IMG/VR virus record: IMGVR_UViG_3300031741_000002
Location: 1-55,017 of that record
Length of the DNA stretch: 55,017 bases
Source: a virus
Taxonomy: Duplodnaviria; Caudoviricetes
Reading direction: 5' to 3' (one strand)
A program made the position numbers and the translations under genes. Shown piece by piece: positions 9,615 through 48,200 of this stretch. The notes below the pieces were generated by a model that saw only the letters and a program-made list of their open reading frames with translations, was not told where the DNA came from and did not search any database. Every line of letters starts with the position of its first letter. Position 1 is the stretch's first letter.

Positions 9615-10541
9615 TTATTTAACCTCTTTAAATTTACCGTCTTTGAGAGTATAATAAACATTTTCTTTTATATGTTTACCATCTACTTTTCTCATTTTAG
9701 CAAAAAACTTATCTGTATCATGATCATACTCGGTTAATACAAGATAACAGCCTAATACGCCTTTTACTTTACACTCATTGCCATTTGCTACCGCTACTGA
9801 ATTTTTACCATTAACAGCAGACGTTGAAGAGTCGCCCGATGTAGCAGACGTTGAATAGTAGCCCGATGTAGCAGACGTTGAATAGTTGCCCGATGTAGCA
9901 GACGTTGAATTGTCGCCCGATGTAGCAGACGTTGAAGAGTCGCCCGATGTAGCAGACGTTGAATAGTTGCCCGATGTAGCAGACGTTGAAGAGTCGCCCG
10001 ATGTAGCAGACGTTGAATAGTAGCCCGATGTAGCAGACGTTGAATAGTCGCCCGATGTAGCAGACGTTGAAGAGTCGCCCGATGTAGCAGACGTTGAATA
10101 GTCGCCCGATGTAGCAGACGTTGAATAGTCGCCCGATGTAGCAGACGTTGAAGAGTCGCCCGATGTAGCAGACGTTGAAGAGTAGCTATCACTAACTTTA
10201 CTTTTTTCAAATATAAATTCAATACCAGCTTTAATAATTGCAGGGATAGTAATTTTTACACCAACTCTTAATTTTTTAGTGCAATACTTTACATTATCAT
10301 CTGTATCGCATTTATCCAGAGCCTCAATTGTTGTAAATTCGTTATTGTTTTTTGGTGGATAATATTGAAATACTGACAACGGATTAGCGCAAAAGTGCAT
10401 ACCGTTATTGCATATACTGGCGTTATCCTCTGTGAAAACTGTATTTTCTTTGTACTTTTTAGGCTTATTTCCTGGGCTACATACTAATCCTTTTGAATAG
10501 CCCTTGAATCCTACCATTACTACTTTTTCTTTTTTCATCAT
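9615..10541 (-). CDS. Phage repeat protein (DUF7666-like N-domain plus 9-aa solenoid repeats)
   Basis: GFKGY, GMHFCANPLSVFQYY, 13 STSATSG repeats, C-term VDGKHIKENVYYTLKDGKF. Confidence 0.8.
   Translation of the reverse strand: MMKKEKVVMVGFKGYSKGLVCSPGNKPKKYKENTVFTEDNASICNNGMHFCANPLSVFQYYPPKNNNEFTTIEALDKCDTDDNVKYCTKKLRVGVKITIPAIIKAGIEFIFEKSKVSDSYSSTSATSGDSSTSATSGDYSTSATSGDYSTSATSGDSSTSATSGDYSTSATSGYYSTSATSGDSSTSATSGNYSTSATSGDSSTSATSGDNSTSATSGNYSTSATSGYYSTSATSGDSSTSAVNGKNSVAVANGNECKVKGVLGCYLVLTEYDHDTDKFFAKMRKVDGKHIKENVYYTLKDGKFKEVK
9816..10186 (-). repeat. 27-bp coding tandem repeat, 13 full units plus 1 partial
   Basis: Plus-strand unit GACGTTGAA(n)(n)GT(n)GCCCGATGTAGCA with variation confined to two codons. 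Confidence 0.95.
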
Positions 10542-10581
10542 CTCACCTTATTATTTAAGTTATCATCACCTGCATATAGTA

Positions 10582-10609
10582 ATTATACCCTCATTTGTCG
10601 ATATGTCAA
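10582..10609 (-). promoter_or_regulatory. Leftward sigma70 promoter
   Basis: TTGACA-16-TATAAT on the minus strand. Confidence 0.8.
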
Positions 10610-10660: not shown

Positions 10661-10689
10661 TTGACAATGCTTGTTTTGTAGTGTATTGT
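10661..10689 (+). promoter_or_regulatory. Rightward sigma70 promoter (divergent pair)
   Basis: TTGACA-17-TATTGT; three 10-bp phased T-tracts upstream at 10621-10650. Confidence 0.7.
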
Positions 10690-10720
10690 AGTGGTATAAA
10701 CTAAATAAGGAGTTGGTAAG

Positions 10721-11044
10721 ATGGAACGGATCATTGGATTCAAAAGGTTTAAGCAACATTGTAATAAAAGAGAGTACGGCATTTGCCAAACTTTATTTAA
10801 TGGTAACAATAAATGCCAATGGGATGAAAAGAAAAGCAAATGCGCCGAAGCAAACTGCCCTGTATTTAAAAGACTTAAGAAGGTGGAAGTTTGCCACGTT
10901 AGAATCTCTGATACAGACCAAAGACTACCGGGCGGAGCTCAATGCGATGATAAAATAAAAGGTGCTGAACCGTTCGGTATCTGGATTGACGAAGCAGCAT
11001 CAATTTCTAAAATCCTATTCAATAAACGTAATCAAAAAGGATAA
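10721..11044 (+). CDS. Cys-rich hypothetical protein, first gene of the rightward block
   Basis: TAAGGAG RBS; 107 aa. Confidence 0.6.
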   Translation: MERIIGFKRFKQHCNKREYGICQTLFNGNNKCQWDEKKSKCAEANCPVFKRLKKVEVCHVRISDTDQRLPGGAQCDDKIKGAEPFGIWIDEAASISKILFNKRNQKG

Positions 11045-20013: not shown

Positions 20014-20358
20014 ATGAGTAAGCAATCGGCAGAAATCAATCGGCTAAAAGAAGTAATTCAATCAGAGGCATTAAAGAACTGTAAAAAGCGTGAAAAATTA
20101 CATTTGAAAGTAGTGGCGCTTCGTAATAACACAATAGAGGAAGCCGAAAAGCACAAAGTTCTTATAAATCACGCCATTAAGCAGCACCAAATTGTCAGTA
20201 ACGACTTGGGTAAAGTTGAAAAGGAACTCATTATGCTGCGGAATAAGTTTGTTGACTTGGTAAAAAATCGTGATGGATATAGATTTTGCGCTATAATGTT
20301 CGGCATTTTAACATATATGTTTATTTTGCGGCATGTATATAAAATGTTTATTGAATAA
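20014..20358 (+). CDS. Coiled-coil protein with C-terminal hydrophobic segment
   Basis: AGGAG RBS. Confidence 0.6.
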   Translation: MSKQSAEINRLKEVIQSEALKNCKKREKLHLKVVALRNNTIEEAEKHKVLINHAIKQHQIVSNDLGKVEKELIMLRNKFVDLVKNRDGYRFCAIMFGILTYMFILRHVYKMFIE

Positions 20359-20387
20359 AAAACCGCATACGTTTTAAAGTATGCGGT
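20357..20387 (-). terminator. Intrinsic terminator (possibly bidirectional)
   Basis: ACCGCATAC-8-GTATGCGGT followed by a U-tract on the minus strand. Confidence 0.8.
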
Positions 20388-20503
20388 ATATATCATCTTT
20401 GTTATTCTATATTCTGTTGGCTTAGTGTAGGATTAACTCATAATTGGCTCCCATATTTAGTTATTCGCGTTTATCTTTCACTTGATGCAATCAAGCACCT
20501 TAA
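20357..20503 (-). ncRNA. Candidate ~145-nt small RNA / minigene transcript
   Basis: Bracketed by its own consensus promoter and terminator; only very short ORFs fit inside the transcript. Confidence 0.5.
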
Positions 20504-20509
20504 AACTAT

Positions 20510-20538
20510 ATTATATATCCTGCAATTAAATTTGTCAA
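20510..20538 (-). promoter_or_regulatory. Sigma70 promoter of the small transcript
   Basis: TTGACA-17-TATAAT on the minus strand. Confidence 0.75.
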
Positions 20539-20549
20539 TAGGTATTAAT

Positions 20550-25438: not shown

Positions 25439-26272
25439 TTAATCTGTTGTTACTGTCCAGTCCCTAGACTGTAAAGTTGCTTTATCTGTTATTCCTTGTT
25501 TTGTTGGCGGTGCTGATGGTGTTTGGTTATTGCTTTCATAAGTTCCATTAGATACTCCAGCAGAAACTAAATCGGCTAAAATTCCGTTAATTTCCGAGGA
25601 TGTTAATGAGTTGCCGTGGCAATATAAATCAGTCAACGCTGTATTCGTACTCACGTCTAAGGATGTTAATGAGTTGCCGTAGCATGATAAATAAGTCAAC
25701 GCTGTATTCGTACTCATGTCTAAGGATGTTAATGAGTTGCCGTAGCATAATAAATAAGTCAACGCAGTATTCGTGCTCACGTCTAAGGTGGTTAATTGGT
25801 TGTCGTGGCAATATAAATAAGCCAACGCTGTATTCGTACTCACGTCTAAGGATGTTAATGAGTTGCCGTAGCACCATAAATAAGCCAACGCTGTATTCGT
25901 ACTCACGTCTAAGGATGTTAATGAGTTGCCGTGGCAATATAAATCAGTCAACGCTGTATTCGTACTCACGTCTAAGGATGTTAATGAGTTGCCGTAGCAT
26001 GATAAATAAGTCATTGGAGCATTACCAGTTCCACTAAAAGTAATAGTTCTAGTTCCTGCCGAACCATAATTTCTATGAACAGCAACATTTGAGCCTGTCA
26101 TTGCAAAATCTTCCGCTATTGTACCATCTCCCCAATCTACCGTTAATGTAGTGCCGTTAGCTGAGATAATGTCAAAAGTTGGGGTTATATCAGTAGTAAC
26201 AAAATTAGTAACAGTAACAATACTTCCCCCACCCCCACCACCAACCAACCTAAGCGCATCAATAGCTCGCAT
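25439..26272 (-). CDS. Leucine-rich-repeat protein with PKD-like N-domain, putative receptor-binding
   Basis: VDWGDGT motif; 21-aa LRRs of the form LTSLDVSTNTALxxLxCxxN. Confidence 0.85.
   Translation of the reverse strand: MRAIDALRLVGGGGGGSIVTVTNFVTTDITPTFDIISANGTTLTVDWGDGTIAEDFAMTGSNVAVHRNYGSAGTRTITFSGTGNAPMTYLSCYGNSLTSLDVSTNTALTDLYCHGNSLTSLDVSTNTALAYLWCYGNSLTSLDVSTNTALAYLYCHDNQLTTLDVSTNTALTYLLCYGNSLTSLDMSTNTALTYLSCYGNSLTSLDVSTNTALTDLYCHGNSLTSSEINGILADLVSAGVSNGTYESNNQTPSAPPTKQGITDKATLQSRDWTVTTD
25597..26012 (-). repeat. 63-bp coding tandem repeat, 6 full units plus 1 partial
   Basis: Near-identical DNA units. Confidence 0.95.
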
Positions 26273-29022: not shown

Positions 29023-29609
29023 ATAGTCCTTGATGATTCAGTTTTTATTCTATTTTTAGAAGTCCGGGCTTGTCGGAAGTTTTCAACTTTCATATTTCCT
29101 GCCGCCCTTGTAAATTCACGATTGCAAAGATCATATTGTGTTAAATCAGTATATGGTTTCATTGGCTGTTTATACATATCAGCTTTTGCCGCCGCCAATA
29201 TCGCCTCAAACCAGCGGTCGAAGAAAGGATTGCTTAATTGTTCAGCATTAAGTTCTGGAATCATAGAAATAACAATCACCATGCCGTCAGTCTCACTTGA
29301 ACTAGGTGCATTTTGTAAAGTTATTGACAATCTATCATCGGCAACCGTATAATCATCTTCCTCAAGGTCATATTGTGAGCCGTTTATATTTACGGAAACA
29401 ACACGAAGCATTATCGCATCATAGGAATCGAGAGTAAAGGTATATGTCAATTCGTCTTTATCGCTATCCTGAGTATGAGTAGACCGCCAGCCGCCAGTTT
29501 CACGACACCATCGCCTTGCACCCAAACGAACCGATTGAACTATTACCGCTTTAACAGCTCCGGTCATGTATGGTTGAATAAGTGGATATAAATCATTTAA
29601 TAGTTCCAT
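28998..29609 (-). CDS. Head-tail adaptor / tail tubular protein A-like
   Basis: 203 aa; ARRWCRETGGW and AILAAAKADMYKQPMKPY; synteny. Confidence 0.65.
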   Translation of the reverse strand: MELLNDLYPLIQPYMTGAVKAVIVQSVRLGARRWCRETGGWRSTHTQDSDKDELTYTFTLDSYDAIMLRVVSVNINGSQYDLEEDDYTVADDRLSITLQNAPSSSETDGMVIVISMIPELNAEQLSNPFFDRWFEAILAAAKADMYKQPMKPYTDLTQYDLCNREFTRAAGNMKVENFRQARTSKNRIKTESSRTIWGRSWGI

Positions 29610-33519: not shown

Positions 33520-35680
33520 TATTCGGGTTCTCCTCTATTGCTTGTGGTGCTTGTTCTTGTTCAGGAGCCGGCGGAGCGTTCATTATACCCTGTCCGCCAC
33601 CATTAAGCATTTGGAACATCATCTTTAATTGATCCTCGTCTATAATTCCGCTATCAAATGACGTTTTCAATAGTTCAACATATCCACTTAAGGCTTCATT
33701 TTGCTGTGCTTGATTTTCCATTTCCTCAAGTTTAGTATCATTTGGAAGTAACTGTTCTGGCGCAATGTCATAATTTTTAACAACTTCGCGCATGAGCTTA
33801 ACTAATCCTTTAGGCTCGATCATTCCCATTAACACCTCGGAGCCTAAAATCATCGTCAATAATTCTTGCTGGCGCATCATGGTTTGTTCTTTTATTGACA
33901 TGCCTAATACACCGCGAGTAACTATTCGCATATCCCCTTTTGTTTCGTCAGGAATTTCAGGATCAGCTAAATTTCTATAATAAAGGTCCTCAAGAGGTTT
34001 TTGGATTATTCCACAATCAAAATTAGCAATAACTTTTTTAAATGTTTTGCTTTGTGCATTCATCAGCATTGATAATCCGGTTGCAGTACCGGCCGCGCCT
34101 GTTTGGGCTCCGGCAGCATCACCTTGAGAATAACGAGGAAGTCCAGAAAAATCATCTGCTTCCTTTAAAAACTTATCCATTACTGGTAATAATTGATTAA
34201 GATTTGCGCTTGGTTGATAAAATTCAACCGGAGATTTATTCCCTGCTACTCGATCAGAGCCATGATACAAAAATGATTTTAAAGGAAACAAGTCAAGCGG
34301 ATCTATGCTACTATCAAGAGCATCAACATCAATTATAGACAGTGGGCCGGAAGTCAATGCCATGTTTGTAATTAATGCTCGTCTAGCTGAATTTAGTCCA
34401 TTCTGAGCAGAACGTACTTTTCTGGGAAGAGATCCGCCCCATACAGAATCTAAATCGTTTTCATAAGAAGCGGTATAAAATTGTTTTCTATTTAACGCAT
34501 TGGTATTTAATTCAGCAAAGATAATATAATTTCCTATTAAAATTGCATGTATCGCATATTCAGCTAAATCAGTAAAATCTTCTGTCATGCCCCAATCTTT
34601 CAACATCTTTCCAGGAACGTTTCCCCAATACTCATAACCCTCTATAACGCCAGATGAAACAGTTCCGGTATATTCCATATCGGAATCATCATACCGACTT
34701 GCTTCGACATTATCGGTTACAGTAGCATCCTTTTCAACTAATCCAGCACCGCCAAATTCAGTTAAAGCTTCGTCAATCTTAGAAGAATTATATCCCGGAG
34801 TATCCCTTAATGAATATATTTCCGCGCGATTATAAGAAACTTTCATAAATAATGAATCGCGGTTTAAGTCTTTATTGTTCCTTGATGGATAAGCATGAAA
34901 TGGAGATACTCTTTCCCATTGGATTAAATCTTTATCTTCCTCTACAAGTTTACCACCACAAAATCTAGCAGTCCGTTCTTTCCTGACAGTTGCTCTCATA
35001 AAACAGGCTGGATATGTACAGAAATCTTTTGCTACACCCTCAACTACCTGCCAAAACCCACCCTCTTCAAGCTGATCGTCCATTTTCTTCTGCATTGCCT
35101 CTGCTCGCTTCTTAGCCTCGTCGTTTACCAAGGCGGCGTAATCATGGCGCATGTCATTACCGAGCTGATAAGCATCCGCAGCATGAAACTGTATACCCTC
35201 TGCTTCCCATCGTTGCATTTCCTCTATGGATAACTTTGTTATTTCAGCATAAATCTTTTCAGGTAGGTCAGGTTCCGATGTAGGTTCAATCATCCACGGT
35301 CTATCACCAGCTTGATAAACTATATCGAACAGCATAGCATGAGCAACATTTATCTTTGCTTCCGTTAATGGTTGATAATCAGTACACCCAATGCCAGTTT
35401 TAGAATAGTTATTTACGGTTACTTCATCATATTCGCTTCTTGCTTGGAGTTTACATCTTTCAATTTCTTGTTGAACTAATGCTTTCTCAAATTGGTAAGA
35501 ATTAACAGTATTTCGTATATGAGCAGCAAGCAGACTTAAGACTTGTTCAGATATTCCGGCAGGCTCGGCAACAATAGTGCTCGGTTTAGTCTCTTCCGAT
35601 GGACCAAACAAGTCCTGTACCTTTGAATTTGGATCTGGTGTAACCATGTTTTCCATATCGTCTTTCCTATAAAATTGCAT
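33512..35680 (-). CDS. Portal protein (likely start at 35648)
   Basis: PWMIEPT..P, RVSPF..YP, SVWGGS, NMALTSGP, GTATGLSMLM motifs. Confidence 0.9.
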   Translation of the reverse strand: MQFYRKDDMENMVTPDPNSKVQDLFGPSEETKPSTIVAEPAGISEQVLSLLAAHIRNTVNSYQFEKALVQQEIERCKLQARSEYDEVTVNNYSKTGIGCTDYQPLTEAKINVAHAMLFDIVYQAGDRPWMIEPTSEPDLPEKIYAEITKLSIEEMQRWEAEGIQFHAADAYQLGNDMRHDYAALVNDEAKKRAEAMQKKMDDQLEEGGFWQVVEGVAKDFCTYPACFMRATVRKERTARFCGGKLVEEDKDLIQWERVSPFHAYPSRNNKDLNRDSLFMKVSYNRAEIYSLRDTPGYNSSKIDEALTEFGGAGLVEKDATVTDNVEASRYDDSDMEYTGTVSSGVIEGYEYWGNVPGKMLKDWGMTEDFTDLAEYAIHAILIGNYIIFAELNTNALNRKQFYTASYENDLDSVWGGSLPRKVRSAQNGLNSARRALITNMALTSGPLSIIDVDALDSSIDPLDLFPLKSFLYHGSDRVAGNKSPVEFYQPSANLNQLLPVMDKFLKEADDFSGLPRYSQGDAAGAQTGAAGTATGLSMLMNAQSKTFKKVIANFDCGIIQKPLEDLYYRNLADPEIPDETKGDMRIVTRGVLGMSIKEQTMMRQQELLTMILGSEVLMGMIEPKGLVKLMREVVKNYDIAPEQLLPNDTKLEEMENQAQQNEALSGYVELLKTSFDSGIIDEDQLKMMFQMLNGGGQGIMNAPPAPEQEQAPQAIEENPNNV

Positions 35681-35787
35681 TCATTATACTACCTGCAAAG
35701 TAAAGCATAGTGAAAACATTATCAACTTAAAAGAACAACGTTTCACCTTAAACAATGTTAAATGTTTACTTTTTTATAGAAATTCTC

Positions 35788-35816
35788 TTGACAAATCCAA
35801 GTATAAGTATTATTCT
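35788..35816 (+). promoter_or_regulatory. Putative promoter of the accessory block
   Basis: TTGACA-17-TATTCT. Confidence 0.55.
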
Positions 35817-35859
35817 AAGACATAATAAGGTTAGATTAATTTTAAAATGGAGCCGAAAG

Positions 35860-36759
35860 GTGAACCCCAAGCGGAAAAGGATTTTATTTCTTGTAGACAA
35901 CAAGAATTGGTGTTGGACTACTCAAGCAAGAAGTATAGCAAAACATCTTCCAGAATACGATTTTTCAATAGTTCCACAAAAAGAATTTTCCACTCATTCC
36001 AAAACATTATTAGCTGTATGCGACCTCGTTTACATGCGTGGCTATCCTGATATTTTCCTAAAAAATGTAGGAATGATTAATAAACCTTTTATATGGACAC
36101 TATCTACCGGTGGAGCTAATCTTGATACGCGGATAGAACAATCTCGCAAATACAAAAAAGTTTCCTCTGCATGTGTTACCCAAAATCTAGTTGCCACAAA
36201 GGCAGCGAAGAAAGCAGGATTCAAAAATGTTACTCTTATTCCATGCGGTGTTGATACAGTTAAATTTTCACCATCTGATAAACATTACGAGTATGTTGTA
36301 GGATTTGCCGGGAATAGCAAAGGTAATCGCGGAGACTTAAAGGGTTCATTATTGGTTAAAGAAGCCTGTGAGCAATTAGGAATTCTATATCGCGAAGTAA
36401 ACCTTGATAATAAACTTACTCCTGACGAAATGCCGGACTTTTACAGATCATTGATGATATATGCTCAACCGTCAGAAGCGGAGGGCTGTTCAAATAGTGT
36501 TTTTGAAGCAATGGCATCAGGTATTCCATGTTTAATAGTAAAAGGTGTCGGTTATCATGGCGAAGCCTGTGAACACGCCAAGAATTGCATATTCGTTGAA
36601 CGCAACGTTGATAGCATAAAATATTTTATCCGCCAATTAATCGGATATAAGAAAACATACAGTAGAATATCAAAAGAATCACGCATATTTGCAGAAGTCC
36701 ACTCATGGGAATCAATTATAGGTAAATATAGGTCAATTATAAAAAAGGTTATTAAATGA
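35860..36759 (+). CDS. Glycosyltransferase, GT-B fold (GT4-like)
   Basis: IPCGVDT..F, VGFAG, KG, PSEAEGCSNSVFEAMASGIP (EX7E); GTG start inferred. Confidence 0.88.
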   Translation: MNPKRKRILFLVDNKNWCWTTQARSIAKHLPEYDFSIVPQKEFSTHSKTLLAVCDLVYMRGYPDIFLKNVGMINKPFIWTLSTGGANLDTRIEQSRKYKKVSSACVTQNLVATKAAKKAGFKNVTLIPCGVDTVKFSPSDKHYEYVVGFAGNSKGNRGDLKGSLLVKEACEQLGILYREVNLDNKLTPDEMPDFYRSLMIYAQPSEAEGCSNSVFEAMASGIPCLIVKGVGYHGEACEHAKNCIFVERNVDSIKYFIRQLIGYKKTYSRISKESRIFAEVHSWESIIGKYRSIIKKVIK

Positions 36760-36956
36760 ACACTAACGAGAGTCAAACGCTGGCGAGGGATATGAAATGC
36801 CATTGTACAGGATTTATTGTATGTTTCGCAAATCCCACCGACTGTAGGTATCACAAACAATGTGTAAGACTTAAACATATTCCAACTTATTATACTTCAA
36901 CAAGCGAACTAGCAAAAGAACTATCAAAACTTAAAACAGGAGCAGACCATGAGTAA
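36756..36956 (+). CDS. Small Cys-rich protein
   Basis: Overlaps neighbouring starts and stops. Confidence 0.55.
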   Translation: MNTNESQTLARDMKCHCTGFIVCFANPTDCRYHKQCVRLKHIPTYYTSTSELAKELSKLKTGADHE

Positions 36957-37119
36957 ACTAGAGAAGATAGTTGAGGATATGATTGAGGAAATGGTTGAGC
37001 AATGCCCACGTTCGTACTGCGACGATTGCGAATATAAATGTTTCTGCACTGGAGATACAAGAGAAGAACAACTAAAGCTAACCACCACCCAAATACTAAC
37101 AGAACTTAAGGAGGATTGA
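36949..37119 (+). CDS. Small Cys-rich protein (56 aa, not in ORF track)
   Basis: AGGAG RBS; CPRSYCDDCEYKCFC. Confidence 0.55.
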   Translation: MSKLEKIVEDMIEEMVEQCPRSYCDDCEYKCFCTGDTREEQLKLTTTQILTELKED

Positions 37120-37122
37120 GAG

Positions 37123-37548
37123 ATGATAGATAGATACTTATTTAGAGGTCGCAGGATTGATAATGGCGAGTGGGTTATTGGCTGTTATCTTGATAGGTCG
37201 TGGGTTTTTGGTGGTGATGATTATTTTATTTTAGTCAAAAACGAATCATACGGAAATGAGGGCAATCCATGCGTTGAAATAACAAAACATAAAGTAGACC
37301 CCGAAACAGTCGGTCAATGCACAGGGCTTGATGTTCCTTTATTCGAAAACGACAAGTTTGAGCTATCTAGCGGAGAAACATTAATTTGCGAATATCACAA
37401 CGGGGGTTTTGGATGGTGGCAATACAAGGGTGAGAGCTACCAGTATTTTATAGGATTTTCAGATCATAACTACTTAAAAGAAATACTTGAAAAAATTAAA
37501 ATCACAGGCACAACACACGACAATCCAGAGGAGGCTATCAGTGAGTAA
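37123..37548 (+). CDS. YopX family protein
   Basis: FRGRRIDNGEWVIG, VDPETVGQCTGL, FENDK, HDNPE. Confidence 0.85.
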   Translation: MIDRYLFRGRRIDNGEWVIGCYLDRSWVFGGDDYFILVKNESYGNEGNPCVEITKHKVDPETVGQCTGLDVPLFENDKFELSSGETLICEYHNGGFGWWQYKGESYQYFIGFSDHNYLKEILEKIKITGTTHDNPEEAISE

Positions 37549-37693
37549 CAACGATTTATGGTGCGACAGATGCGGAAGTCAACATCACCCGATGAATTGT
37601 CCATTGGATAATGTAAAGCATGGCAACCGCACTCGCAGGAAGCCAAAACCGCGCAAGATAACCAAGTCCAAGATTATTAGAGGGGGGAAGTAA
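37541..37693 (+). CDS. Small zinc-knuckle basic protein
   Basis: GGAGG plus GTG start; CDRCGSQHHPMNCP. Confidence 0.5.
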   Translation: MSNNDLWCDRCGSQHHPMNCPLDNVKHGNRTRRKPKPRKITKSKIIRGGK

Positions 37694-38526
37694 TGAAAAT
37701 ACTACTAACAAACAGTAATCCACTATCAGAATGCTATCTTCGGTACATTGAAGATCTTCAAGCTTCTGATAAATACGATGCAATTACGACTACCGAGGAT
37801 ATTAGAGCGTTCCCGGATTATCTTGAACGATATAAAAACCTTTTAGTAATTGAACGCGGCGATAGTGCTGAAATCAGGAACCGTAAAGTAATTGCGCATC
37901 CAAGCGTTACTACTTTCGTAAAAATGTATTCATATACGGACTTAAAATATCATAATGATCCGTCAATAGGCGGACGAGTATTTTTAGAAACACTTGCAAC
38001 GGAAGAAGAATTTAAGGAACATGCTAAATTACCACTGCAGGTATCAGAAAAGGATTTTGCCAAAATACAATTTGGTTTCAACTTCCTGCATTATACCAGG
38101 CTTGAAACATTATTTGAAATGCTTAAGAAAACTGAAATTAAAGATACTCTTGAGCGACCTATTGATTACTTCTTTGCTGGTACTGTGGAATACAATAAAG
38201 AAAGTATCTCTGGTAGATTGATTTCCGCGCATCGTGAATCATGGATAAGGTCAATTGAGCAACATAGAGAAAAAGGTTTTAATGTTGAAGTACACCGCAG
38301 CAAGAAGCTTAATTTTACACAATTTGTTGACAAACTATTGAATACCAAATATATTGTATCACCTTTCGGTTGGGGTGAAATGTGTTATCGAGACTATGAA
38401 GCTGAACTATGCGGTTGTACAGTTGTTAAATCGTTTCATCACCCAATATCAGCATATCCGCGTGGCGAATCTCTCGTTCACGATAAAATTAATGAACATA
38501 ATGTAATCAAGGAGTTATTGAAATGA
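37693..38526 (+). CDS. Glycosyltransferase-like (exostosin/GT-B C-domain)
   Basis: RPIDYFFAG, TKYIVSPFGWGEMCYRDYEAELCGC. Confidence 0.65.
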   Translation: MKILLTNSNPLSECYLRYIEDLQASDKYDAITTTEDIRAFPDYLERYKNLLVIERGDSAEIRNRKVIAHPSVTTFVKMYSYTDLKYHNDPSIGGRVFLETLATEEEFKEHAKLPLQVSEKDFAKIQFGFNFLHYTRLETLFEMLKKTEIKDTLERPIDYFFAGTVEYNKESISGRLISAHRESWIRSIEQHREKGFNVEVHRSKKLNFTQFVDKLLNTKYIVSPFGWGEMCYRDYEAELCGCTVVKSFHHPISAYPRGESLVHDKINEHNVIKELLK

Positions 38527-38723
38527 GTTTATGCAATCACGAATTTAGACCTCGATATAACGAGGGCGAAATAGATGGCGGTCAATTATATGATATTCTA
38601 AATATGATATTGCCTAGTAATATTACAAAAACTATTACCGCAGCGAAATCTAAAACATATATCCACGATATTTGTATTAAATGTGGTAAACTTATAAAAA
38701 AGGAGAATCAAAACAATGAATAA
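38523..38723 (+). CDS. Small zinc-finger protein
   Basis: CNHEF...CIKCG. Confidence 0.55.
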   Translation: MSLCNHEFRPRYNEGEIDGGQLYDILNMILPSNITKTITAAKSKTYIHDICIKCGKLIKKENQNNE

Positions 38724-39300
38724 ACTAAAAGTAAGTTTTCCGTATCCGACAGTCAAACCAAGTATTGAGAAAGACTTTACAAATGGTAGACCGACCGGAT
38801 GGTGTAATGGTGTCAATATTGGCATGTTCGAGGAAATAATCACTCCTGAAATGAAAGTTATCATTGATGGTGGCTCATTCATGGGTTGTTCAGCTTCTCA
38901 TTTTCTGGAACTCGCGCCTAATGCAAGTATTATCTGTATCGATCATTGGAAAGGAAGCATTGAACATCAACAAAGGGAAGATGTGAACGAACTATTTGAA
39001 AAGTTCATTGTCAATATGTGGGATCATAAAGATAGAGTATTCCCTGTTCGTAAAGATTCTACCGTAGGATTATTGGCAGTCAAGGCGGCAGGAGTTGAAC
39101 CGGATCTAATCTATATCGATTGGAGCCACGACACAACAAATGTCATAAATGATATTACAGAAGCATACAAATTGTTCCCTGATGCGATTATCTGCGGTGA
39201 CGATTACACATGGCCTAGCGTTAAAAAAGCCGTTCAAATAATGATTGATACTCGCGGATTTGAATTTAAAACGTATGAAACTTGCTGGAGGTTGTTGTAA
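38716..39300 (+). CDS. Class I SAM-dependent methyltransferase (Methyltransf_24-like)
   Basis: IDGGSFMGCS, CIDHW, DLIYIDWSH, CGDDY.W..V. Confidence 0.85.
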   Translation: MNKLKVSFPYPTVKPSIEKDFTNGRPTGWCNGVNIGMFEEIITPEMKVIIDGGSFMGCSASHFLELAPNASIICIDHWKGSIEHQQREDVNELFEKFIVNMWDHKDRVFPVRKDSTVGLLAVKAAGVEPDLIYIDWSHDTTNVINDITEAYKLFPDAIICGDDYTWPSVKKAVQIMIDTRGFEFKTYETCWRLL

Positions 39301-39548
39301 TGGCTAAATACATGAAGAAACCTGTTATCATTGTTGATGCTATTCAATTCTCAGGATTCAATTTTGTTAAATGCAAAAAGTTTATCGGCGGTAAAGTTGA
39401 TAACACCTTGAAGTATCCGAATATTATTACTCCATCGGCGCAAACGGAAGAAGTCGTTAAAGGCGATTGGATTCTCAAGGATAGACTCGGAAATCTCGCA
39501 ATAATGAAACCTAAAATGTTTGCAGCTTGCTATGAGGTGATAAAGTGA
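39300..39548 (+). CDS. Conserved phage protein (KKPV family)
   Basis: MAKYMKKPVII.DAIQF...GDWI...KP.MF..YE. Confidence 0.75.
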   Translation: MAKYMKKPVIIVDAIQFSGFNFVKCKKFIGGKVDNTLKYPNIITPSAQTEEVVKGDWILKDRLGNLAIMKPKMFAACYEVIK

Positions 39549-40180
39549 TGAATTACAAAGATTTTATGAAGAAAACAGTCAAAGAAGCCGCGGCATGGAG
39601 AATATTCATTGTCCTGTATGGCTTCTGTGAATGCTACGGTATGGAAAAGTATCTTCATTGGTACTCGGCAGTAAATAGGCTAATCGACTTCATAAACGCC
39701 TTAAAGCTTCCAGATGATATAAAACTCAAGACTCTGGATATATCCGCCGGTATGGGATTTTTGCCATTCGTGCTAAAGGTTGCTGGACATGATGTTTCTC
39801 TTACGGAAGTATACGATGAGAAAACCAACATATACCATAATGCGTATAAAATCTTAGGATTGCCGCTTGCAATAGACTTCAAGTATCCGCAAAGTAAATT
39901 TATAGCGTTACCGAGTGAATGCGGAACCTATGACTTGATTACTGCTGTTGCTGTTGCTCCTATGTCAAGATGGAATAAAAAGGATTGGGAATCATTCATT
40001 ATAAACTGTTTTGAGCACATGCCTGTAAATGGACGGCTAATAATTTCGCCAAATAAATCACCAGGGAAGAAAGCATTAATCGAATACTTACACGAACTTG
40101 AGGGGTTCGGGCTATTCTATTTTACCAAAAACGTAATCGAAACATCTAAATTTGAAGCATTCGAGATAATTAAAATTTAA
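39545..40180 (+). CDS. Class I SAM-dependent methyltransferase
   Basis: TLDISAGMG, YDLITA, GRLII. Confidence 0.75.
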   Translation: MMNYKDFMKKTVKEAAAWRIFIVLYGFCECYGMEKYLHWYSAVNRLIDFINALKLPDDIKLKTLDISAGMGFLPFVLKVAGHDVSLTEVYDEKTNIYHNAYKILGLPLAIDFKYPQSKFIALPSECGTYDLITAVAVAPMSRWNKKDWESFIINCFEHMPVNGRLIISPNKSPGKKALIEYLHELEGFGLFYFTKNVIETSKFEAFEIIKI

Positions 40181-40198
40181 CCAATAAGGAGAAGTATT

Positions 40199-40606
40199 AT
40201 GTTTATTTCAAATAGAGTAAAGGGAAAGCTTATTGAAGTACTACAATTTTATCAAGAGGATATTAACAAGTTAGAATCAGAAATCAAATTAATAAAAGCG
40301 GATAAAGGTCGCAATGACGAATTACTAAAAGAGCTGCAAAGGCAACTAGGTTGCGGCATATCTCACGAAAGCGACCCTTTGCTGGTATATTCTAGTCCAG
40401 ACCCATATCAATTTTGTGTAATTACGATTCCGCCAGAAGAAAGATGTTCTGTTTGCGGAAAAGTTTTAAGAATGTTTGAAGACCATGAATCAGCAGACAA
40501 AAGACGGTCAGAGTTATTACTCGAAAAATCTGAACGATTCCGCCAAAAAGCAGAAAAACTCGATCCATCATTAAACCCTCCAGGAACAAAGAGGAAATCA
40601 GTTTGA
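40199..40606 (+). CDS. Hypothetical protein
   Basis: AAGGAG RBS; coiled coil plus CSVCG. Confidence 0.6.
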   Translation: MFISNRVKGKLIEVLQFYQEDINKLESEIKLIKADKGRNDELLKELQRQLGCGISHESDPLLVYSSPDPYQFCVITIPPEERCSVCGKVLRMFEDHESADKRRSELLLEKSERFRQKAEKLDPSLNPPGTKRKSV

Positions 40607-40630
40607 CAATTCGACTTTAACAACTATAAT
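40603..40630 (+). promoter_or_regulatory. Sigma70 promoter
   Basis: TTGACA-16-TATAAT. Confidence 0.78.
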
Positions 40631-40637
40631 AATTTAT

Positions 40638-40711
40638 GGGGAACGGTACTCGTTGACATCTTACCTTATTTAAGTTTCAACTTCCCCCAGGAAACAACGA
40701 TGCCGTTTCCC
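40638..40711 (+). ncRNA. Candidate hairpin regulatory RNA with anti-RBS loop
   Basis: Begins at the predicted TSS; 11+6 bp stem with 2 G-U pairs; 39-nt pyrimidine-rich loop. Confidence 0.55.
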
Positions 40712-40737
40712 TCTTTAACCAAAGCCAAAGGAGTATT

Positions 40738-41226
40738 ATGTTTACAACAATAGTCGATTTAATGGCAATTTTATATCTCTTTATAATCCTGTTTATTCTT
40801 GTCCGCAAAAGAAAAGAAAAAAAGAAAGGCGAAGCAATAATTAACGGGTATTTAGATGATCCGGATATCCCTAAGAATGTAAAATTACAACTTAAAAATA
40901 GCCTTGGTTCTGATTATGCAGGGAAAATTCACGATGAACTATATGTTGATCCGTTACAGCAAACTACATATCGCGCGCATGAGACTATCCAGCAAGCCAA
41001 GGATGGAATTATCAGGGAAGCGATAAATCATGTTCTCGGTACCGATAAATGGGAGCTGGACGAAGTTAAGGGTAGATGTCAGATGGTTTCAATTGAAAGA
41101 TTAGAAAAATTTACAATGGACGGGAAAGAATTGATTATATTCTATCCACCTACACAGGAGCTTCCGTCAGAGTTATACGGTGTTTATACAGCAACTCTTT
41201 CATTTGAATACATAATACTTTATTAG
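40738..41226 (+). CDS. Membrane-anchored hypothetical protein
   Basis: N-terminal TM helix then basic stretch; AAGGAG RBS. Confidence 0.65.
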   Translation: MFTTIVDLMAILYLFIILFILVRKRKEKKKGEAIINGYLDDPDIPKNVKLQLKNSLGSDYAGKIHDELYVDPLQQTTYRAHETIQQAKDGIIREAINHVLGTDKWELDEVKGRCQMVSIERLEKFTMDGKELIIFYPPTQELPSELYGVYTATLSFEYIILY

Positions 41227-41234
41227 GAGGGATT

Positions 41235-41624
41235 ATGAAAAGATGTAAAACATGCAAAAAAACATTGGATGAAGCTGAATTTTACAAAAATTCTAGCCAT
41301 CTTCATTGCAAAATATGCTATTTAAAAGGAAGAAGAAGTTCATATCATAGCAAAAAAAACAAAAAAACTATAATATGTCCAATTTGCAAAAGCAATGAAA
41401 CCAAAAAAAAATTAAGATATTGCAAAATGTGCCGGTGCCTAAAAAGGAGATTAAATTACGAAAAAAATAAAGAAACCGCACTAAGGAGATGCAAGAGATA
41501 TAGAGATAGACACGGGATCGATATAAACAGAAAGAATGCAGAATATAAAAAAAGAACAAAAATAACAATCTCGACAAAACGATTTTTCCAACTGGCTAAC
41601 ATGGGAGTAATAAAAGATGACTAA
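41235..41624 (+). CDS. Basic multi-CxxC zinc-finger protein
   Basis: CKTC, CKIC, CPIC, CKMC; AGGAGG RBS. Confidence 0.65.
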   Translation: MKRCKTCKKTLDEAEFYKNSSHLHCKICYLKGRRSSYHSKKNKKTIICPICKSNETKKKLRYCKMCRCLKRRLNYEKNKETALRRCKRYRDRHGIDINRKNAEYKKRTKITISTKRFFQLANMGVIKDD

Positions 41625-42171
41625 ACTAACAAAGACCACATCAATGCAAATCGTCAACCTGGTAAATAATGGGGTGGAAAGCTGGATAAAAGCAGGTGAA
41701 TTAATATCTAAAGTAATAGATAATAATCCAAAATGCATGATTAAACTATCTTTAAAAACCGGTTTATCTCAATCATTGCTAAATGCACTTCTAAGAATGG
41801 GCAATAAAACACTATATCCCCATTTAATGTTAAAGGATTCATTAGGGTATTCTAGACTAGAAAAGTGCTCATATGAAGCCCAGGAAAAATATTTTTCTCA
41901 TCCAGTAGACTTACTCGTTGTAAGCAAAGACGGATATGATACACTAAAGGTTTTAATTGAAAACCTAACGAAAAATCAAATTGGACAGGTTTTTAACAAC
42001 GGAGAAATAAGATCATTACCTGCGCAAAGGGCTTATCTTGAATCATTTAAAACATTTAGTGATATAACAGAGGCAAAACTAATATATTCCATAGATGGAG
42101 ACTCTCTTATTATTTTAAGAAAAACTAGATTCTCCAAAAAACAACTTATTAAAATAATAGACTCAATGTAA
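41617..42171 (+). CDS. Hypothetical protein
   Basis: 184 aa; overlaps the upstream stop. Confidence 0.7.
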   Translation: MTKLTKTTSMQIVNLVNNGVESWIKAGELISKVIDNNPKCMIKLSLKTGLSQSLLNALLRMGNKTLYPHLMLKDSLGYSRLEKCSYEAQEKYFSHPVDLLVVSKDGYDTLKVLIENLTKNQIGQVFNNGEIRSLPAQRAYLESFKTFSDITEAKLIYSIDGDSLIILRKTRFSKKQLIKIIDSM

Positions 42172-42195
42172 AGGTTTCATTTGAAATGAGACCTT
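42171..42195. terminator. Hairpin between convergent blocks
   Basis: AAGGTTTCATT...AATGAGACCTT. Confidence 0.6.
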
Positions 42196-42221
42196 GAGTT
42201 TATACATTTAAAAACGCGAAA

Positions 42222-45200
42222 CTATTTCTTCTTCATCAACTCGGAGAACATCTTTCTAACTTCCTCGGTTTTGGATTGCCGTCTTGCCCTGCGGTATTTT
42301 GATCGTAGGATAACTTTGACTTGTTTTCTTTCCTTGCGTGTAGCAATGGTATAAACATTCAGAGCATCCCTAATTGAAAGACGATTGAACGAACTTGCAA
42401 ATGGTGTTTTCCTCGCTTCTTTGCGCAACATAACATAAGAGCGCCGGCCAAGAATCTTAACAGCTTCTTTTACATCAATCTTTTCGCCTTTCCGAATCCT
42501 GTTTATCACAGTACGGCGATATGTTGACCGTTCAAACTTCTCTTGAGTTTTAACTTTATCAGGTATTCTTTCTACAATTAATCTTGTCATTAGCTTTTGC
42601 GCCGGACTTTTACTTAAGTATCCCGGAGCCGAACTTATGCCAGTAATTGAAACTCCTAGATTCTTTAATTTATTACCAGGTGCCGCTTTATTCATTTTTG
42701 CATAGTTCTTTATGGAAAACGGTAGGAAAGCTTCTGCTATATGTTCAACAACTTGTCCAGCTTGTTTCATAAGCGGATCATCCGTATGTCTTACTTCAAC
42801 ATTAAAGTAATCCTTATTCTTTGCTAAGTCGCCCAGTAATCCCCATAACGGGTGCATTTTATGTGTAATGGTTTTCAATGGTTGTTCAGCATAAGCATAC
42901 CAATCTTTCGCGTATGTAGGCAATGACAATCTTTCAGGAGATCCATCAGGATTTGTATTACCGGTTTTTGGGAAAAGATAATCTTTAGCTTCTTCTGGGG
43001 GTTCGCCAGTCAAAGCGTATTGGATTATTGCGCCCAATACGGAATAGGTTACGACTGCCCCTATCGTATAAGCCATTTTTTGACTGAGCCATACATCGCC
43101 CTCTTTAATTCTTTCATTGGTTGTTCCTATATCGACAATTCCGCCGCCGAACTCTCTCCATGACCCTATATTCCACCCAACACTTCTTACTGCCAGCATT
43201 AATGAATCTTTAAGAGTTTTATTCCAGAATAAATTATCATAAACTAACTGACCCATGCGGTTATCTACATTATCCCATGATTGAGTTAATCGTTCCCACA
43301 GTTGATCTTCATCTATTTGTCCATTTTCTGCTCTTTCAAATTCATGTTGAGCAAGTTTAGAGAATAAGCCTATTTTCCCGGTCGGTACATACCATTCCAT
43401 TAATGGCTTTGCTAAATTCTCCATAGTCGCACCGAATAGATTAAAAGGTAATTTCATACTACTCTTCATTTTGGTAAAGGCATCGCCCTTTGATATATCA
43501 GCAAGTGTTTTATTTAGGGCTTTAATTTGTTGATTATAATAGAACGCATCCATTTTAGAACGACCGCCGGAAGCTATAACAGCCTCTACCATTTGCCTTA
43601 ATTTAGGATTTTCAATACTGTCTAATTGTTTTTTATAAGCTTTTCTTATCCGCTGGCCACTCCATACTCTCATAATCGGAGCAATCGGAGTAACCGCCAT
43701 ATCTGCAAGGCCCTTAATTCTTTGCCCTTTAACTTGAAGTTTACGCAATCCCAAGCCAAACGTTGAAGCCATCATATCGCTCGTAACATTCAGCGCATGA
43801 AAAAGACTCAAGGCTAAGTTTGCTTGATTCAGTACATTTCCACCACCACGAAGCATATTATAAGTATTCGCGATTATTTTATTATTATTGCTGCGTAATC
43901 CCGGAGATAAGTAATTATTAAGAATCGTTCCTACTGGTTCAACTGCATAAAAATTACCCAACGTGGTAAATCCTGGAACTTTTATTTTTGCTTCATTTTC
44001 GCCTAAAACTAAGGACGGCTTAATGTCAAGCAATGGTCTTAGGTCTGCATTGTTATTCAGGAACTTTACAAATACCTTTTTGAGATCAGGCGCAACTCTT
44101 TTAAATTCGTCCGGCGCATGAATAAGAGCTTCAAGCATGACAGCTTCTTTTTCGCGACCTTTTCTAACATACTTTTTGAATCCCTCGGTTACTTCTGACC
44201 CTTTATATCTTGCATCTGCCAAAGCGCGCCATTGAGCATCAATTTTTCTACGGTAATCAAGGATTTCCGGTGTAGCTTTTAGATATGTTTTCCCAGCATT
44301 CTTGCCCGTCTTGTGAGTTTTAATCTCTCCGTCATTTCTGCGACCAAGTAAATCATATAGGTTATATCGGTATCCCAATACATGACCTATTTCATGGAAT
44401 GCTACACTTTCAGGAGAAGCTAATTTTGTTCTGACTTCTTCGCCACCCTCCATTCCTGGATACCATTTAGCATACCCAAGGCGCTTACCGCCAAGATTAA
44501 CAAATCTTTTTGCATCAACCCCAAGATGTTCAGCCACGCTCATTAAATCATTTACCATAATTTTATCATAATAATCTTTTTTTGTAATTTCGGGCGGCAT
44601 ATAAACCGTGAATGCGTTATCATTAATTTTAACATAACCCTCTGGAAATGGACTTCTAGCATATACAAATTTGATTTGACCTCGTTCTTTCAAATCTTTA
44701 ATCATGTTTTGAGCCATGATGTACCTATCCATTTCATGCAACTTCAAGAGAACCATGTCTGCAGGATTATCACTTACTAACTCAAGCCCTCGTTCAATTC
44801 CGTCTTTGATCGATACAATGACACGTTTCTTCAAGAATGATTTAGTCCCCTCAATATTCTTTTTACCCATGATCGAGGAAATAATATTTTTAGCTTTTTT
44901 CGGATCTTTCCAAATATGAGGAAAATAATTATCGATATAGTTTTCAAGTTGACCCTTGCCTAAGTTTTGGATAGTATTACGCCGACCGTCAAGTAAATCC
45001 CTGAACATATCCGCTGATTTTTGTAATTCTTTAGTTTTCTGTGGCTTCCCGGTTTCCATGTTGTCTATAAAGTCCAAACTATCCTTTGTGTCCATCCATG
45101 TAAAGGCTTTGTGCATTTTTTCTAAGGCATCAGCAACAACAACGTCATTGTGAGCAAGTTCAGCTATATTCTTGCGTAATATCTTTTTGCCTACCAATGC

Positions 45201-48200
45201 ACCTTTACGCGCGGCAGGAGCTACCATCTTCAATGTTTCATCAATTACGCCAAATTTATTAACCGGCATTTCTTCGGCAACTTTTGAATAATCTGTTTGT
45301 GCTACTTTTTCTCGTTTATCATTTGCGGCGGACTTCTCACTTGATTCAATAGTTCCATATCCGCCTGTTCTTACTTTATTCTTATCATCAATACTCAACA
45401 TAATATCCGGGCTATCGGTCGGAGCCTTGTTCTGCGTGGACTTGATTTGGTTGGGGGAGAATACAGCAAATGTTCTTTTGTCGAATTTATCTAAATGCTC
45501 TATTCCATCATACCCTATGGATTTTAAAAAGTTGCTAGTGCTTTTAAGATTTATATACTCCCAAGCGAAAGCCTGACTATAATCTATTACATTTTGTGAA
45601 TGTTCTTTAATAGCATTTTTTTTATATTCATTAAACCTATCAGTAGAAACATTTTTTTCTTTTATCACATTTCTTAATCTACTAAAATAATCACTGATAT
45701 TTACTACTTTTGCTATTTTCCTATACTTGAAATCAATCGGATTAGAAATCTTAAAATATAATTCCATCACCTTGCCATTTTTTGTGTCGTGTAGACCAGC
45801 GTATTTTATGGCGAAATCTTTATCCTCAGCCCCCCAAAATACACCATCGTTTGCTATTGTAAAATCCTTATCAGTCCCATGATAAACCACCAACGGCTCA
45901 CCCTTAGAGTCAACCACCTTAGAGTCCCCGAACCACTTCTTGAACTGCGGAGTATCGATGGAGAAGCGTACTTCTTTAAGTAGTTTTTTTCCTACAACGT
46001 CAATATCCGAGGAGCCGAATAGTTTTTTAAGTTCATCTGCTGGCATTCTATCCCAAACTTTACGATAATGTTTTGCTTCAATATCTGTTACTGATTCAGA
46101 TACCACAAGAGACGCATATTGTTCTAATGTCTTTTTTGCGTGCGGTTCTAATGTTCTTGCGCCATTCTCAACTTTTGTTAAATGAGCTATAGATTCAGTT
46201 ACGGTATCGCCTTGAGATTTCCAATCAGCAGCTTTTCTACCCATATTTTTAATCTTTTTCGCAAATGCTTCCAATACGCCCTTTTCGTTCCATATAGTAA
46301 AGCCTTTACCGTTAGGAAATTCAACACGGACAATACTATTTTTAGCACCTTTGATTGCTTTTGTTTCAGGAGCTTTTTTAGATAACTCTGTAAATATAGC
46401 AGATAATTCTTTTTTGCTCGGTACGGTTTTAAGTTTTCTTACTTCTGCGTATACGTCGCCTTTTATGTTGGTTTCAATAGTCGGAGTAGTGGATAGGGCG
46501 GATCTTTCCGCTGCTTCCTTTATTCCTTTTTCCTGTTTCCTTTTATCAAATTTCTCTTTTACTTTATCTGCAACTTCACTATCCACCTTGATTTTTGCAA
46601 CATGCTTATCATAAACTTCGCCCAATATCTTAGCTTTCAAACGTGCGAGCTTGCCGTTCACAACATCACCCTTTGCGAGTGGATAAGTTTTACCAGTTGC
46701 ATTATCTCGTACGCCGCCTGGAACTTTATTCTTATCAACCGTGAACCTAGACTTGTGAGCATCGATCCATTCTTGCCGTGATAGTGTCTTTTTGCCCGCA
46801 GGTTCTTTTTTAACAGTTTCCGCCTCAACAACAACCTTTTTAACCTCTTTCTTCTCTACTTTGACCGCAGGGGTTGGCTCTATTTTAGTTTTCTTGACGG
46901 GAGTTGGTTTTGATTTTGGAGTAGGTTTTTGTTCTATTTTGCTTACTCTTTTCCAACTTTTCCCTTTAATTAAATCTCTAACAAGAGAGCGACTCATTCC
47001 TCCAAACTCTTTGCCCGTAGAATCGGTAAACTTAATTGTATTGCCTTTTATGCTCCTTATTGTTACTTCGCCACTCATGTTTGTATTGCCCTGTGGGTCT
47101 AAAACATCTCCAACTTTAAACTCGTTAGCAACGCCCTTTGTTTTGCCTTTTACTGGCTTAACTTCCGCTTTCTTTTCAACCACCGGCGCAATACTCTTAT
47201 TCATAAAATCTTCGCCAGCCTTGATTGCTTGGTCAAGGTTCTTCCCAAATATCTTGCTCATATTGCTGTCTTTCCTGCCGTCAAATATCTTACCCATTCT
47301 TTTGCGAATCTCTTTGAATATCTCAAGGATTTTCTCGTATAGGTTGGCGTCTAGTTCATGTAGATTTTTCCAAAATGATTCATTTCCTGCCTGTTCTTCT
47401 ATTAGGTATGCTCCGAGTTCTTGCATTAATCCTTCCTTGCTTGGTGTTCTTCCTAGTAATTCTGTTATTTTTTTTGACTTTTCAGCAGCCCACGCTTTGT
47501 AATTATCGCCATCGTAGAGTTCTTCTAGTTTGCTACTGAATTTATCCCAAAGTTTAGGGTGTCTAGTTTGAAAAACGTGTGTAAATTCATGGGTTGCGAG
47601 AGATAATGGGGATTTTTCTGCATCAATATTTATAAACACATTACCATTATATTCAAATGCCCCTACGTTTTCTTTACCCATTTTTACAAAAATGACCGGT
47701 GCCTCTAACTCGTCGCCTATTTTTTTAAGACCCTGCGAAATTTTATCATCTCCTACATCTGCTCTTTCTATTTTTAAATTTGGACTACGTTCAATAACTT
47801 CAGCTATGCTTTTGTCAATAGCATCGGGTTTTTGTTCTGGATTGATAGCATTGTCTGCTTGGGGAATTTTTCTGCTATTTTTTTCTTCTACCAGAGAATC
47901 TCTTTCTTTAATCAATTTATTAATCATTGCTTTATTTCCGCTACCATCATCACTATCTATAATCTTATTATATCCATCAATTGTATAATCGAGCGCATCA
48001 TCACTCATGTCTTTAACTTGAATAGTTTTGCCAGGAATAACATCTTCTCTTTCTATTTTTCCCTTTTCCGTTTCCTTACCTTCACCCTCTGCCGGAAACT
48101 CCTGCGCTATTTCATCTTCTGTGATTGGAGTTTCAACAATATCATCAATCGCATCGACAAGTGGTTCAACGGTGTCTATTTCTGTATCAGGAGCTTCTTC

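Follow-up and report, generated by a model that had tools for sequence, protein, structure and literature searches.

The complete virus genome IMGVR_UViG_3300031741_000002 of IMG/VR (Caudoviricetes; 55,017 bp with a 127-bp terminal repeat), which as a whole constitutes the window analyzed here, carries at positions 40603-40711 a perfect promoter directly followed by a large hairpin, whose loop is complementary to the start region of a gene located 30 kb away. Tentatively, and with somewhat less than even confidence, we interpret this promoter-hairpin element as the source of a 5′-terminal hairpin RNA that would act like the c4 RNA of phage P1, blocking the translation of the first gene of the leftward operon, and that would probably do so as the 5′ end of an mRNA. 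A broader version, in which the 5′ end of an accessory-operon mRNA would work as a trans-acting antisense hairpin with a loop that fuses the boxes of both leaders, throttling the first genes of the two divergent operons and perhaps a glycosyltransferase gene too, is more doubtful. The operons in question diverge from a promoter region with genes reading leftward from ~10541 and rightward from 10721, and the leftward one carries a DUF7666 protein, methyltransferases and a terminase. The element itself sits in a second rightward block (35755-42171; glycosyltransferase, methyltransferase-domain protein and ORFans), between the genes 40199-40606 and 40738-41226.

The promoter and the hairpin

The promoter that the first-pass annotation had placed just ahead of the hairpin matches the sigma-70-type consensus at all of its 12 positions, and its −35 box overlaps the TGA stop codon (40604-40606) of the gene 40199-40606. 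Perfect TTGACA-N16-18-TATAAT sites are found five times genome-wide against 0.05 expected, with 0/100 shuffles giving at least five, and the whole set, which includes those at 10609(-), 16756(+), 20538(-) and 29324(+), is taken here as real host-type promoters. By the established rule for the distance between a promoter and its start, transcription would begin at A40636 or G40638, 6 and 8 nt past the −10 box, which places the beginning of the stem 0-2 nt from the expected 5′ end of the RNA. A start at A40636 would also make the RNA open with the AUG of a 6-codon frame, MGNGTR (stop codon at 40654-40656), which covers the 5′ arm of the stem exactly and could be a leaderless mini-ORF (open reading frame), whose translation would open the stem.

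The stem comprises 17 bp, arranged as 11 bp, a bulged C and 6 bp, and includes two G-U pairs (G40641-U40708 and U40647-G40702), because of which the long stem can form on the plus strand only. The strand preference that had been deduced from these wobbles is borne out by folding: the hairpin alone reaches −25.5 kcal/mol on the plus strand, whereas the best minus-strand fold (−21.9 kcal/mol) has a different architecture that does not present the loop. In a plus-strand frame of 105 nt, the minimum free energy (MFE) of the hairpin is −27.1 kcal/mol (z = −2.57), with 2/200 shuffles folding equally well, and the hairpin is retained in the centroid fold of 264-nt and 351-nt contexts. Among 80-nt windows of both strands it comes about 13th after clustering (z ~ −3.6), and most of the better ones lie, by their coordinates, inside genes. 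Above the 17-bp lower stem with its single bulge, the upper stem is weakly paired, with 2+3+4 bp in the MFE structure and none in the centroid. The coordinates of these and of the other features discussed below are collected in Table 1.

Table 1. Coordinates of the promoter-hairpin element, its predicted targets and the features around them
Feature	Positions	Strand	Remarks
Perfect sigma-70-type promoter, TTGACA-16-TATAAT	40603..40630	+	12/12 match; −35 box 40603-40608, −10 box 40625-40630
Expected transcription start	40636..40638	+	A40636 and G40638
5′ stem arm	40638..40655	+	RNA folding
Loop, 39 nt	40656..40694	+	5′ half (~40656-40671) mostly unpaired by unpaired probability and centroid structure
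Antisense segment of the loop	40657..40679	+	Reverse complement of block A (AACTTAAATAA) abutting block B (GGTAAGATG)
ACTTCCCCC	40680..40688	+	Complement of the G-rich Shine-Dalgarno region of gene 37693
3′ stem arm	40695..40711	+	Followed by TCTTTAAC, not a terminator-grade T-run
11-codon frame, MSTSTVPHKLL	40624..40659	-	Behind the leader-like start region AAGGTAAGATG; read from sequence
Three ORFan genes (40738-41226, 41235-41624, 41617-42171)	40738..42171	+	Most likely also expressed from the 40603 promoter
Terminator-like site	42277..42296	+	Terminator scan
Leader and start codon of the leftward first gene 9615-10541 (DUF7666 protein)	10539..10565	-	Main predicted target
Perfect promoter of the leftward operon	10582..10609	-	Shares TTGACA-NN-TCGAC with the 40603 promoter
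Leader and start codon of the rightward first gene 10721-11044	10698..10723	+	Both blocks; weak candidate target
Start region GGGGGAAGTAATG of the putative glycosyltransferase gene 37693	37683..37695	+	Possible third target; Pfam hint weak

Complementarity of the loop to distant start regions

The antisense segment of the loop is built from the complements of two short blocks, A (AACT(T)AAATAA) and B (GGT[A/G]AGATG), each of which has exactly three copies in the genome (both strands considered), located in the same three places: the left leader (10561, -), the right leader (10699, +) and the reverse complement of the loop (40676, -). No other co-occurrence of the two blocks exists in the genome, and none arises in 200 dinucleotide-preserving shuffles, a count that is illustrative rather than a formal p-value, as the patterns were defined after the data had been seen. 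As these three places account for every copy of each block, neither block is present in any of the other 64 start regions. A and B are directly joined in the loop; the left leader has 3 nt between them and the right leader 6 nt, which contain AAGGAG. In both first genes block B ends in the actual start codon, and its sole difference between the loop and the left leader (A vs G) amounts to a G-U wobble in the pairing. Little internal pairing is predicted for the 5′ half of the loop, whose sequence complements block B together with the first half of block A.

Beyond the blocks, the three sequences do not align: each of the 20 core positions agrees with at least one of the leaders, the flanks retain no similarity, and what the two leaders and the loop complement have in common is limited to the start region. 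This confinement is read as selection on exactly the part that would be paired. The presence of boxes that are specific to the two leaders suggests a common factor acting in trans, and this loop holds their one further copy in the genome.

Pairing energies, calculated by adding to the best sub-duplex energy the cost of opening each partner, were compared across the 67 ORF start regions of our own gene call (a few of these ORFs being doubtful), which show a mean of −4.1 kcal/mol with a standard deviation of 4.1. The complementarity of the loop (40657-40679) to the left leader, as originally described, holds firmly, with a duplex energy of −25.6 kcal/mol, or −18.6 kcal/mol after correction for accessibility, which ranks first of the 67 and is reached by none of 300 dinucleotide shuffles of the loop. 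The pairing, which would span positions −28 to +1 of the left-leader mRNA, is specific and far beyond chance. The second rank corresponds to the start region of gene 37693 (−14.1 kcal/mol), just ahead of whose ATG lies GGGGGAAGT (37683-37691), the exact complement of ACTTCCCCC; the previously noted match to this ribosome binding site is therefore exact, and by our own estimate such a 9-mer match is also near chance expectation. The third rank is for gene 26272-29022 (−13.8 kcal/mol). Pairing in cis between the loop and the start region of the downstream gene 40738 falls outside the 14 best of the 67. As for simpler measures, counting contiguous pairs with free G-U wobble was discarded as uninformative, since it yields well over a hundred runs of at least 13 pairs against the start regions.

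In the proposed mechanism, the host RNA polymerase would start at the consensus promoter 40603 to produce an RNA that begins directly with the 17-bp stem (40638-40711). This stem would protect the 5′ end and display the 39-nt loop, with its 5′ half single-stranded, which would then pair with the spacer and start codon (block B) and with the A/U-rich upstream box (block A) of the gene at 10541. The resulting duplex would block 30S binding and lower the translation of the first gene of the leftward operon, with possible weaker, secondary effects on the rightward first gene (10721) and on gene 37693. The hairpin RNA would probably act not as a free terminated small RNA but from the 5′ end of the 40738-42171 mRNA, either intact or after processing. 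Altogether, a perfect promoter that feeds the antisense strand, a stem that forms only in the plus-strand RNA and at its expected 5′ end, an accessible loop, and a core that is perfectly kept between unshared flanks favour a functional loop.

Points against the antisense reading and alternative explanations

Several results weigh against this interpretation. By energy, pairing with the right leader is not beyond chance (−10.4 kcal/mol, tied for rank 4/67, with 41/300 loop shuffles doing as well), so that the targeting of both first genes, as proposed by the first-pass annotation, is carried by the two shared blocks; of the two leaders expected to outrank the other starts and the shuffles, the left one does so and the right one does not. 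The geometry of an antisense RNA (promoter, 5′ stem, and an open loop facing a start region) and the specificity of the left target stand in that proposal; the targeting of both genes by energy does not. Moreover, in an unrestricted scan of 10,996 windows of 46 nt, ranked by raw duplex energy, the left leader belongs to the top 0.1% and is tied, at −25 to −26 kcal/mol, with several unrelated coding sites; the claim of complementarity is limited to start regions and does not extend to the whole genome. Every promoter involved is of the host-consensus type, which means that the regulator and its targets would fire together, with no evident logic of timing. A further point is that no relative was found to carry the promoter-hairpin element, and that none of the listed sequencing runs containing this DNA is recorded as RNA.

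Also to be counted on this side is the lack of a terminator: in a scan of positions 35000-43000 none is called at the end of the hairpin, and none before gene 40738. The stem is followed by the tail UCUUUAAC and then by AAGGAG (40728-40733) and the ATG at 40738, a strong start region at 16-20 nt past the stem. The hairpin was itself considered as an intrinsic (Rho-independent) terminator and rejected, with a 39-nt loop far outside the geometry of such terminators (a G+C-rich stem, a loop of 3-8 nt and an immediate run of U), the same tail, and no call by the scan. In the absence of a terminator after the stem, the RNA is most simply the mRNA of 40738-42171, having the hairpin as its 5′ end and finishing near 42277-42296. 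For the same reason a discrete small RNA, such as the ~75-nt transcript of the first-pass annotation, is not predicted, and a free RNA of that size would need processing; the stem continues as UCUUUAA toward the start region of gene 40738.

The Rfam search that had been suggested as a check gave 0 families for the whole window at gathering scores, and at E <= 10 only 3 chance-level matches to unrelated families in the region 40400-40900. No match to 39500-42200 was obtained by blastn in phage GenBank, and no relatives were recovered among viral contigs through the proteins of genes 40738 and 40199 (gp40738 and gp40199). The former finds only itself among 5.8 billion clustered proteins, and the latter shows 11 remote matches besides itself in a set of 1.84 billion representatives, the short well-covering ones being 29-37% identical. 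The DUF7666 protein led to a single high-GC contig, which was set aside as unrelated. The C-terminal 499 amino acids of a polyvalent protein encoded next to the block detect 7 viral contigs at 40-59% identity, which lack the accessory block (0/15 window proteins at E <= 1e-3) and whose loci contain no perfect promoters and, by blastn-short, only matches of 11 and 15 nt. Three relatives by primase/helicase (75-79% identity) have only the replication module in common, with no hairpin. One of these three (G002; L013 5776-6787) harbours a 30%-identical homologue of gp40199 in its replication module, with the next gene directly after it and neither promoter nor hairpin in between. To judge from these comparisons, 35755-42171 forms an accessory, mosaic block, and the gene for gp40199 moves without the promoter-hairpin.

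Exact 20-mer scans gave 0 matches in viral contigs, 1 in metagenome contigs, rejected as an unrelated contig that reads as coding, and 1 in species genomes, which is approximately the chance expectation for a 20-mer in 596 billion bases. Identical DNA is present in the contigs of 4 DNA runs labelled as marine metagenome, which show no differing letters wherever they cover 39800-41700 (2 of the runs span it in a single contig), and thus provide no natural variation to use; 3 of these runs may be the record's own source.

The foremost alternative, which we consider unlikely, is that the element is the relic of an inverted duplication, in which an early promoter-leader cassette was copied into the accessory block with its leader part inverted. 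The similarity would then reflect descent, the minus-strand frame would be dead or trivial, and there would be no regulation in trans. The complement of the loop has indeed the full anatomy of a textbook start region (A/U box, AAGG, a 4-nt spacer and ATG) followed by an 11-codon frame from 40659 down to 40624, a caveat already raised in the first-pass annotation that proved well founded. Besides the motif TTGACA-NN-TCGAC shared by the 40603 and 10609 promoters, the left and right promoters have in common ACATTT(A)GCTNTTGACA, a stretch comprising the −35 box and the letters before it, which together with the two leader blocks makes the region 10575-10700 a partial inverted duplication. The duplication of cassettes has therefore clearly occurred, and descent alone could explain the similarity. 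Furthermore, the first leftward gene of relative G002, which encodes an unrelated protein, shows a leader of the same style (L013 1900-1940, G002 ~13918, -; AACTTTTTATTGGAGGTAGTAAGATG, that is, AACTT..TTGGAGG..GTAAGATG), and GTRAGATG also precedes another gene of that contig, its rightward leader being devoid of this style. From such sequence likeness, this type of start region looks like a cassette that recurs in this phage group and predates the present arrangement, and the shared blocks may be inherited start-region cassettes. The absence of the accessory block from the 7 relatives by polyvalent protein fits the same view. A neutral copy, however, should decay evenly, yet the core is kept at all 20 positions and the flanks are lost, and neither the 17-bp stem that brackets the copy nor the perfect promoter that reads it in antisense is explained by descent. 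In addition, the small frame has no minus-strand promoter better than chance, with only 9-of-12 matches upstream of it, and 30 such sites found in the region vs 30.3 expected.

A plain 5′ untranslated hairpin of the 40738-42171 mRNA acting in cis, either as a stabilizing structure or as a processing site (e.g. for RNase III or RNase E), with a loop complementarity devoid of function, comes next in order and is likewise improbable as the whole explanation. 5′-terminal stem-loops protect mRNAs from 5′-end-dependent decay, and in this case the stem starts at the expected transcription start, the structure persists in the mRNA context, and translation of gene 40738 would begin shortly after it in an RNA with no intervening terminator. 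This possibility leaves unexplained the unique two-block match to the leaders and the failure of every loop shuffle to equal the left-leader energy, and the perfect promoters whose downstream sequence was read (10609, 16756 and 20538) show no comparable stem at their start sites. Typical RNase III substrates have ~20 bp or more, and a 17-bp stem with a poorly paired upper part is below that length; processing sites of the T7 type consist of approximately two helical turns of nearly uninterrupted duplex with an internal loop and lie between genes. In any case, a role in cis is compatible with, and not exclusive of, the antisense activity in trans.

Much less probable is that the motif is a DNA operator, at which a putative phage or host DNA-binding protein would block elongation downstream of three strong promoters. 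All three copies lie at approximately +15 to +45 from the promoters 10609(-), 10661(+) and 40603(+), and a DNA site works either way round, which would account for the inverted third copy. Against it, block spacings of 0, 3 and 6 bp are awkward for a rigid protein site, block B ends in real start codons and is thus tied to translation, no DNA-binding regulator is recognized in the 40/67 ORFs scanned against PHROGs, and the flanking stem with its plus-strand-only G-U pairs is left unexplained. An invertible segment, in which the 17-bp inverted arms would let the 39-bp core flip, so that part of the population would carry the start region in sense orientation after the promoter, has in its favour only the geometry of imperfect inverted repeats around a promoter-proximal, orientation-sensitive element, and is extremely improbable given that no recombinase is recognized in the ORFs scanned, that the flipped form gives only a 20-codon frame out of frame with gene 40738, and that the contigs of the 4 runs show one orientation and no strand-changing joint (a weak argument, as contigs drop rare variants). 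The remaining probability belongs to none of these readings.

Known phage RNAs and the genomic setting

In the review PMC12197685, the loops of c4 are described as pairing with the region around the ribosome binding site, and the antisense reading would make the element similar to c4 of P1/P7 (immI region): a phage RNA, with the complementary sequence in a loop, which pairs at the ribosome binding site region to block translation. Both RNAs resemble their target as though a piece of it had been duplicated, and the hallmark of c4, a loop-displayed complement that pairs with such a region, is also predicted here for the left leader with the rank and shuffle counts given above. The element differs in that no Rfam family, including c4 if the library contains it, matches it in sequence or structure. 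The target of c4 lies further down in the same transcript, and c4 is released by RNase P as a discrete RNA of ~70-80 nt and serves lysogenic immunity, whereas the best targets of the element map at 10.5 kb and 37.7 kb, outside its own transcript, with the leaders 30 kb away in other operons, no processing signal is evident at the element, and none of the ORFs scanned in this phage is a lysogeny gene.

P4 CI and related immunity RNAs derive from the 5′ leader of a longer transcript and pair with repeated complementary boxes in phage transcripts. The element would also sit in a leader, but P4 CI causes premature transcription termination rather than a block of the start codon, whereas the targets of the element are start regions, and there is no homology between them as judged by Rfam. 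Strong promoters also drive the short phage RNAs P22 sar and lambda OOP, the former covering the ribosome binding site of ant much as the element is predicted to cover a start region. Both are transcribed opposite to their target at the same locus, hence their full complementarity; the element is encoded elsewhere and would pair over ~23 nt with bulges. To our knowledge, c4, CI, sar and OOP all come from temperate phages, in which they serve immunity.

Among prophage small RNAs, DicF of the Qin prophage pairs with ftsZ mRNA, according to the review PMC12197685. The likeness lies in base pairing in trans at a translation start region; the difference, in that DicF is a 53-nt RNA aimed at host genes, whereas the best targets of the element are the phage's own genes. 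Hfq-type small RNAs usually have a terminator-type 3′ end, which the element lacks, and the category of a terminator-ended RNA acting in trans was consequently rejected, the element having its own promoter and no terminator of its own with a U tail. Finally, the stabilizing stem-loops of the ompA 5′ untranslated region type consist of a stable stem a few nt from the 5′ end of the mRNA and do not need a large loop. With a start at 40636-40638, the element would resemble them in its stable stem within a few nt of the 5′ end and ahead of a gene, and it departs from them in its complementarity to other mRNAs.

With regard to the genome, which has a GC content of 37.8%, the recognizable genes include those for virion and packaging functions (small and large terminase, a portal or adaptor protein and an internal virion protein), and for replication and DNA metabolism (primase/helicase, exonucleases, a NinB-like protein and DNA methyltransferases), with the methyltransferase-domain protein of gene 38716-39300 in addition to the latter. 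No integrase or repressor was detected in the PHROGs scan, which covered 40/67 ORFs (the other 27 were outside the scan), and the phage looks virulent. The suggestion that the RNA stands in for a missing repressor thus loses its ground, as nothing requires a lysogeny-type switch. ARAGORN finds 0 tRNA/tmRNA genes in the window. The coordinate origin of the record may be arbitrary, and no argument is drawn from the order of genome entry.

Some neighbouring features deserve a mention in their own right. The predicted target gene 9615-10541 contains, at 9735-10267, ~14 tandem copies of a 27-nt unit coding for 9-amino-acid repeats, and ~7 copies of a 63-nt unit are found at 25534-26100 in the gene 25439-26272. 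Early in the rightward operon there are genes for a peptide deformylase (11048-11533, +) and an acyl-carrier-protein-like protein (12073-12318, +). The polyvalent protein (2,637 amino acids; 42222-50135, -) has an ART-PolyVal ADP-ribosyltransferase domain at residues 1409-1573. Of the other perfect promoters, the one at 20538-20510 (-; TTGACA-17-TATAAT) is followed ~115 nt later by a strong terminator (a 9-bp stem at 20387-20362, then a T-run), so that the region 20355-20540 (-) would yield a ~140-nt transcript without notable ORFs, a candidate small RNA between convergent gene blocks (fold z = −1.81) that carries AACTAAATA, then GGGAG and then the start-stop AUGAGUUAA. Its pairing with the hairpin loop, at −11.9 kcal/mol with large internal loops, is not notable. 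The promoter at 29324-29353 (+; TTGACA-18-TATAAT) lies inside, and antisense to, the gene 28998-29609 (-), reading toward its start region at 29609; with no plus-strand terminator-like site downstream up to 31200, it may give a cis-antisense transcript.

A last question is related to what such an element would mean for the phage. If the antisense reading were true in its broader version, an accessory module would be coupled to the core programme without any protein regulator, through an RNA that would be at once messenger and regulator and that is unrelated in sequence to c4, CI, sar and OOP. If the loop pairing is real, it would represent antisense control from loop to start region in an uncultured marine phage with no lysogeny genes among the ORFs scanned, exerted by a regulator that forms part of an mRNA leader and is encoded at a great distance from its target, and it would offer a portable part made of a 75-nt hairpin and a 23-nt target box. 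Were the element only a relic, it would still illustrate clearly how promoter-leader cassettes can undergo duplication and inversion inside a phage genome.

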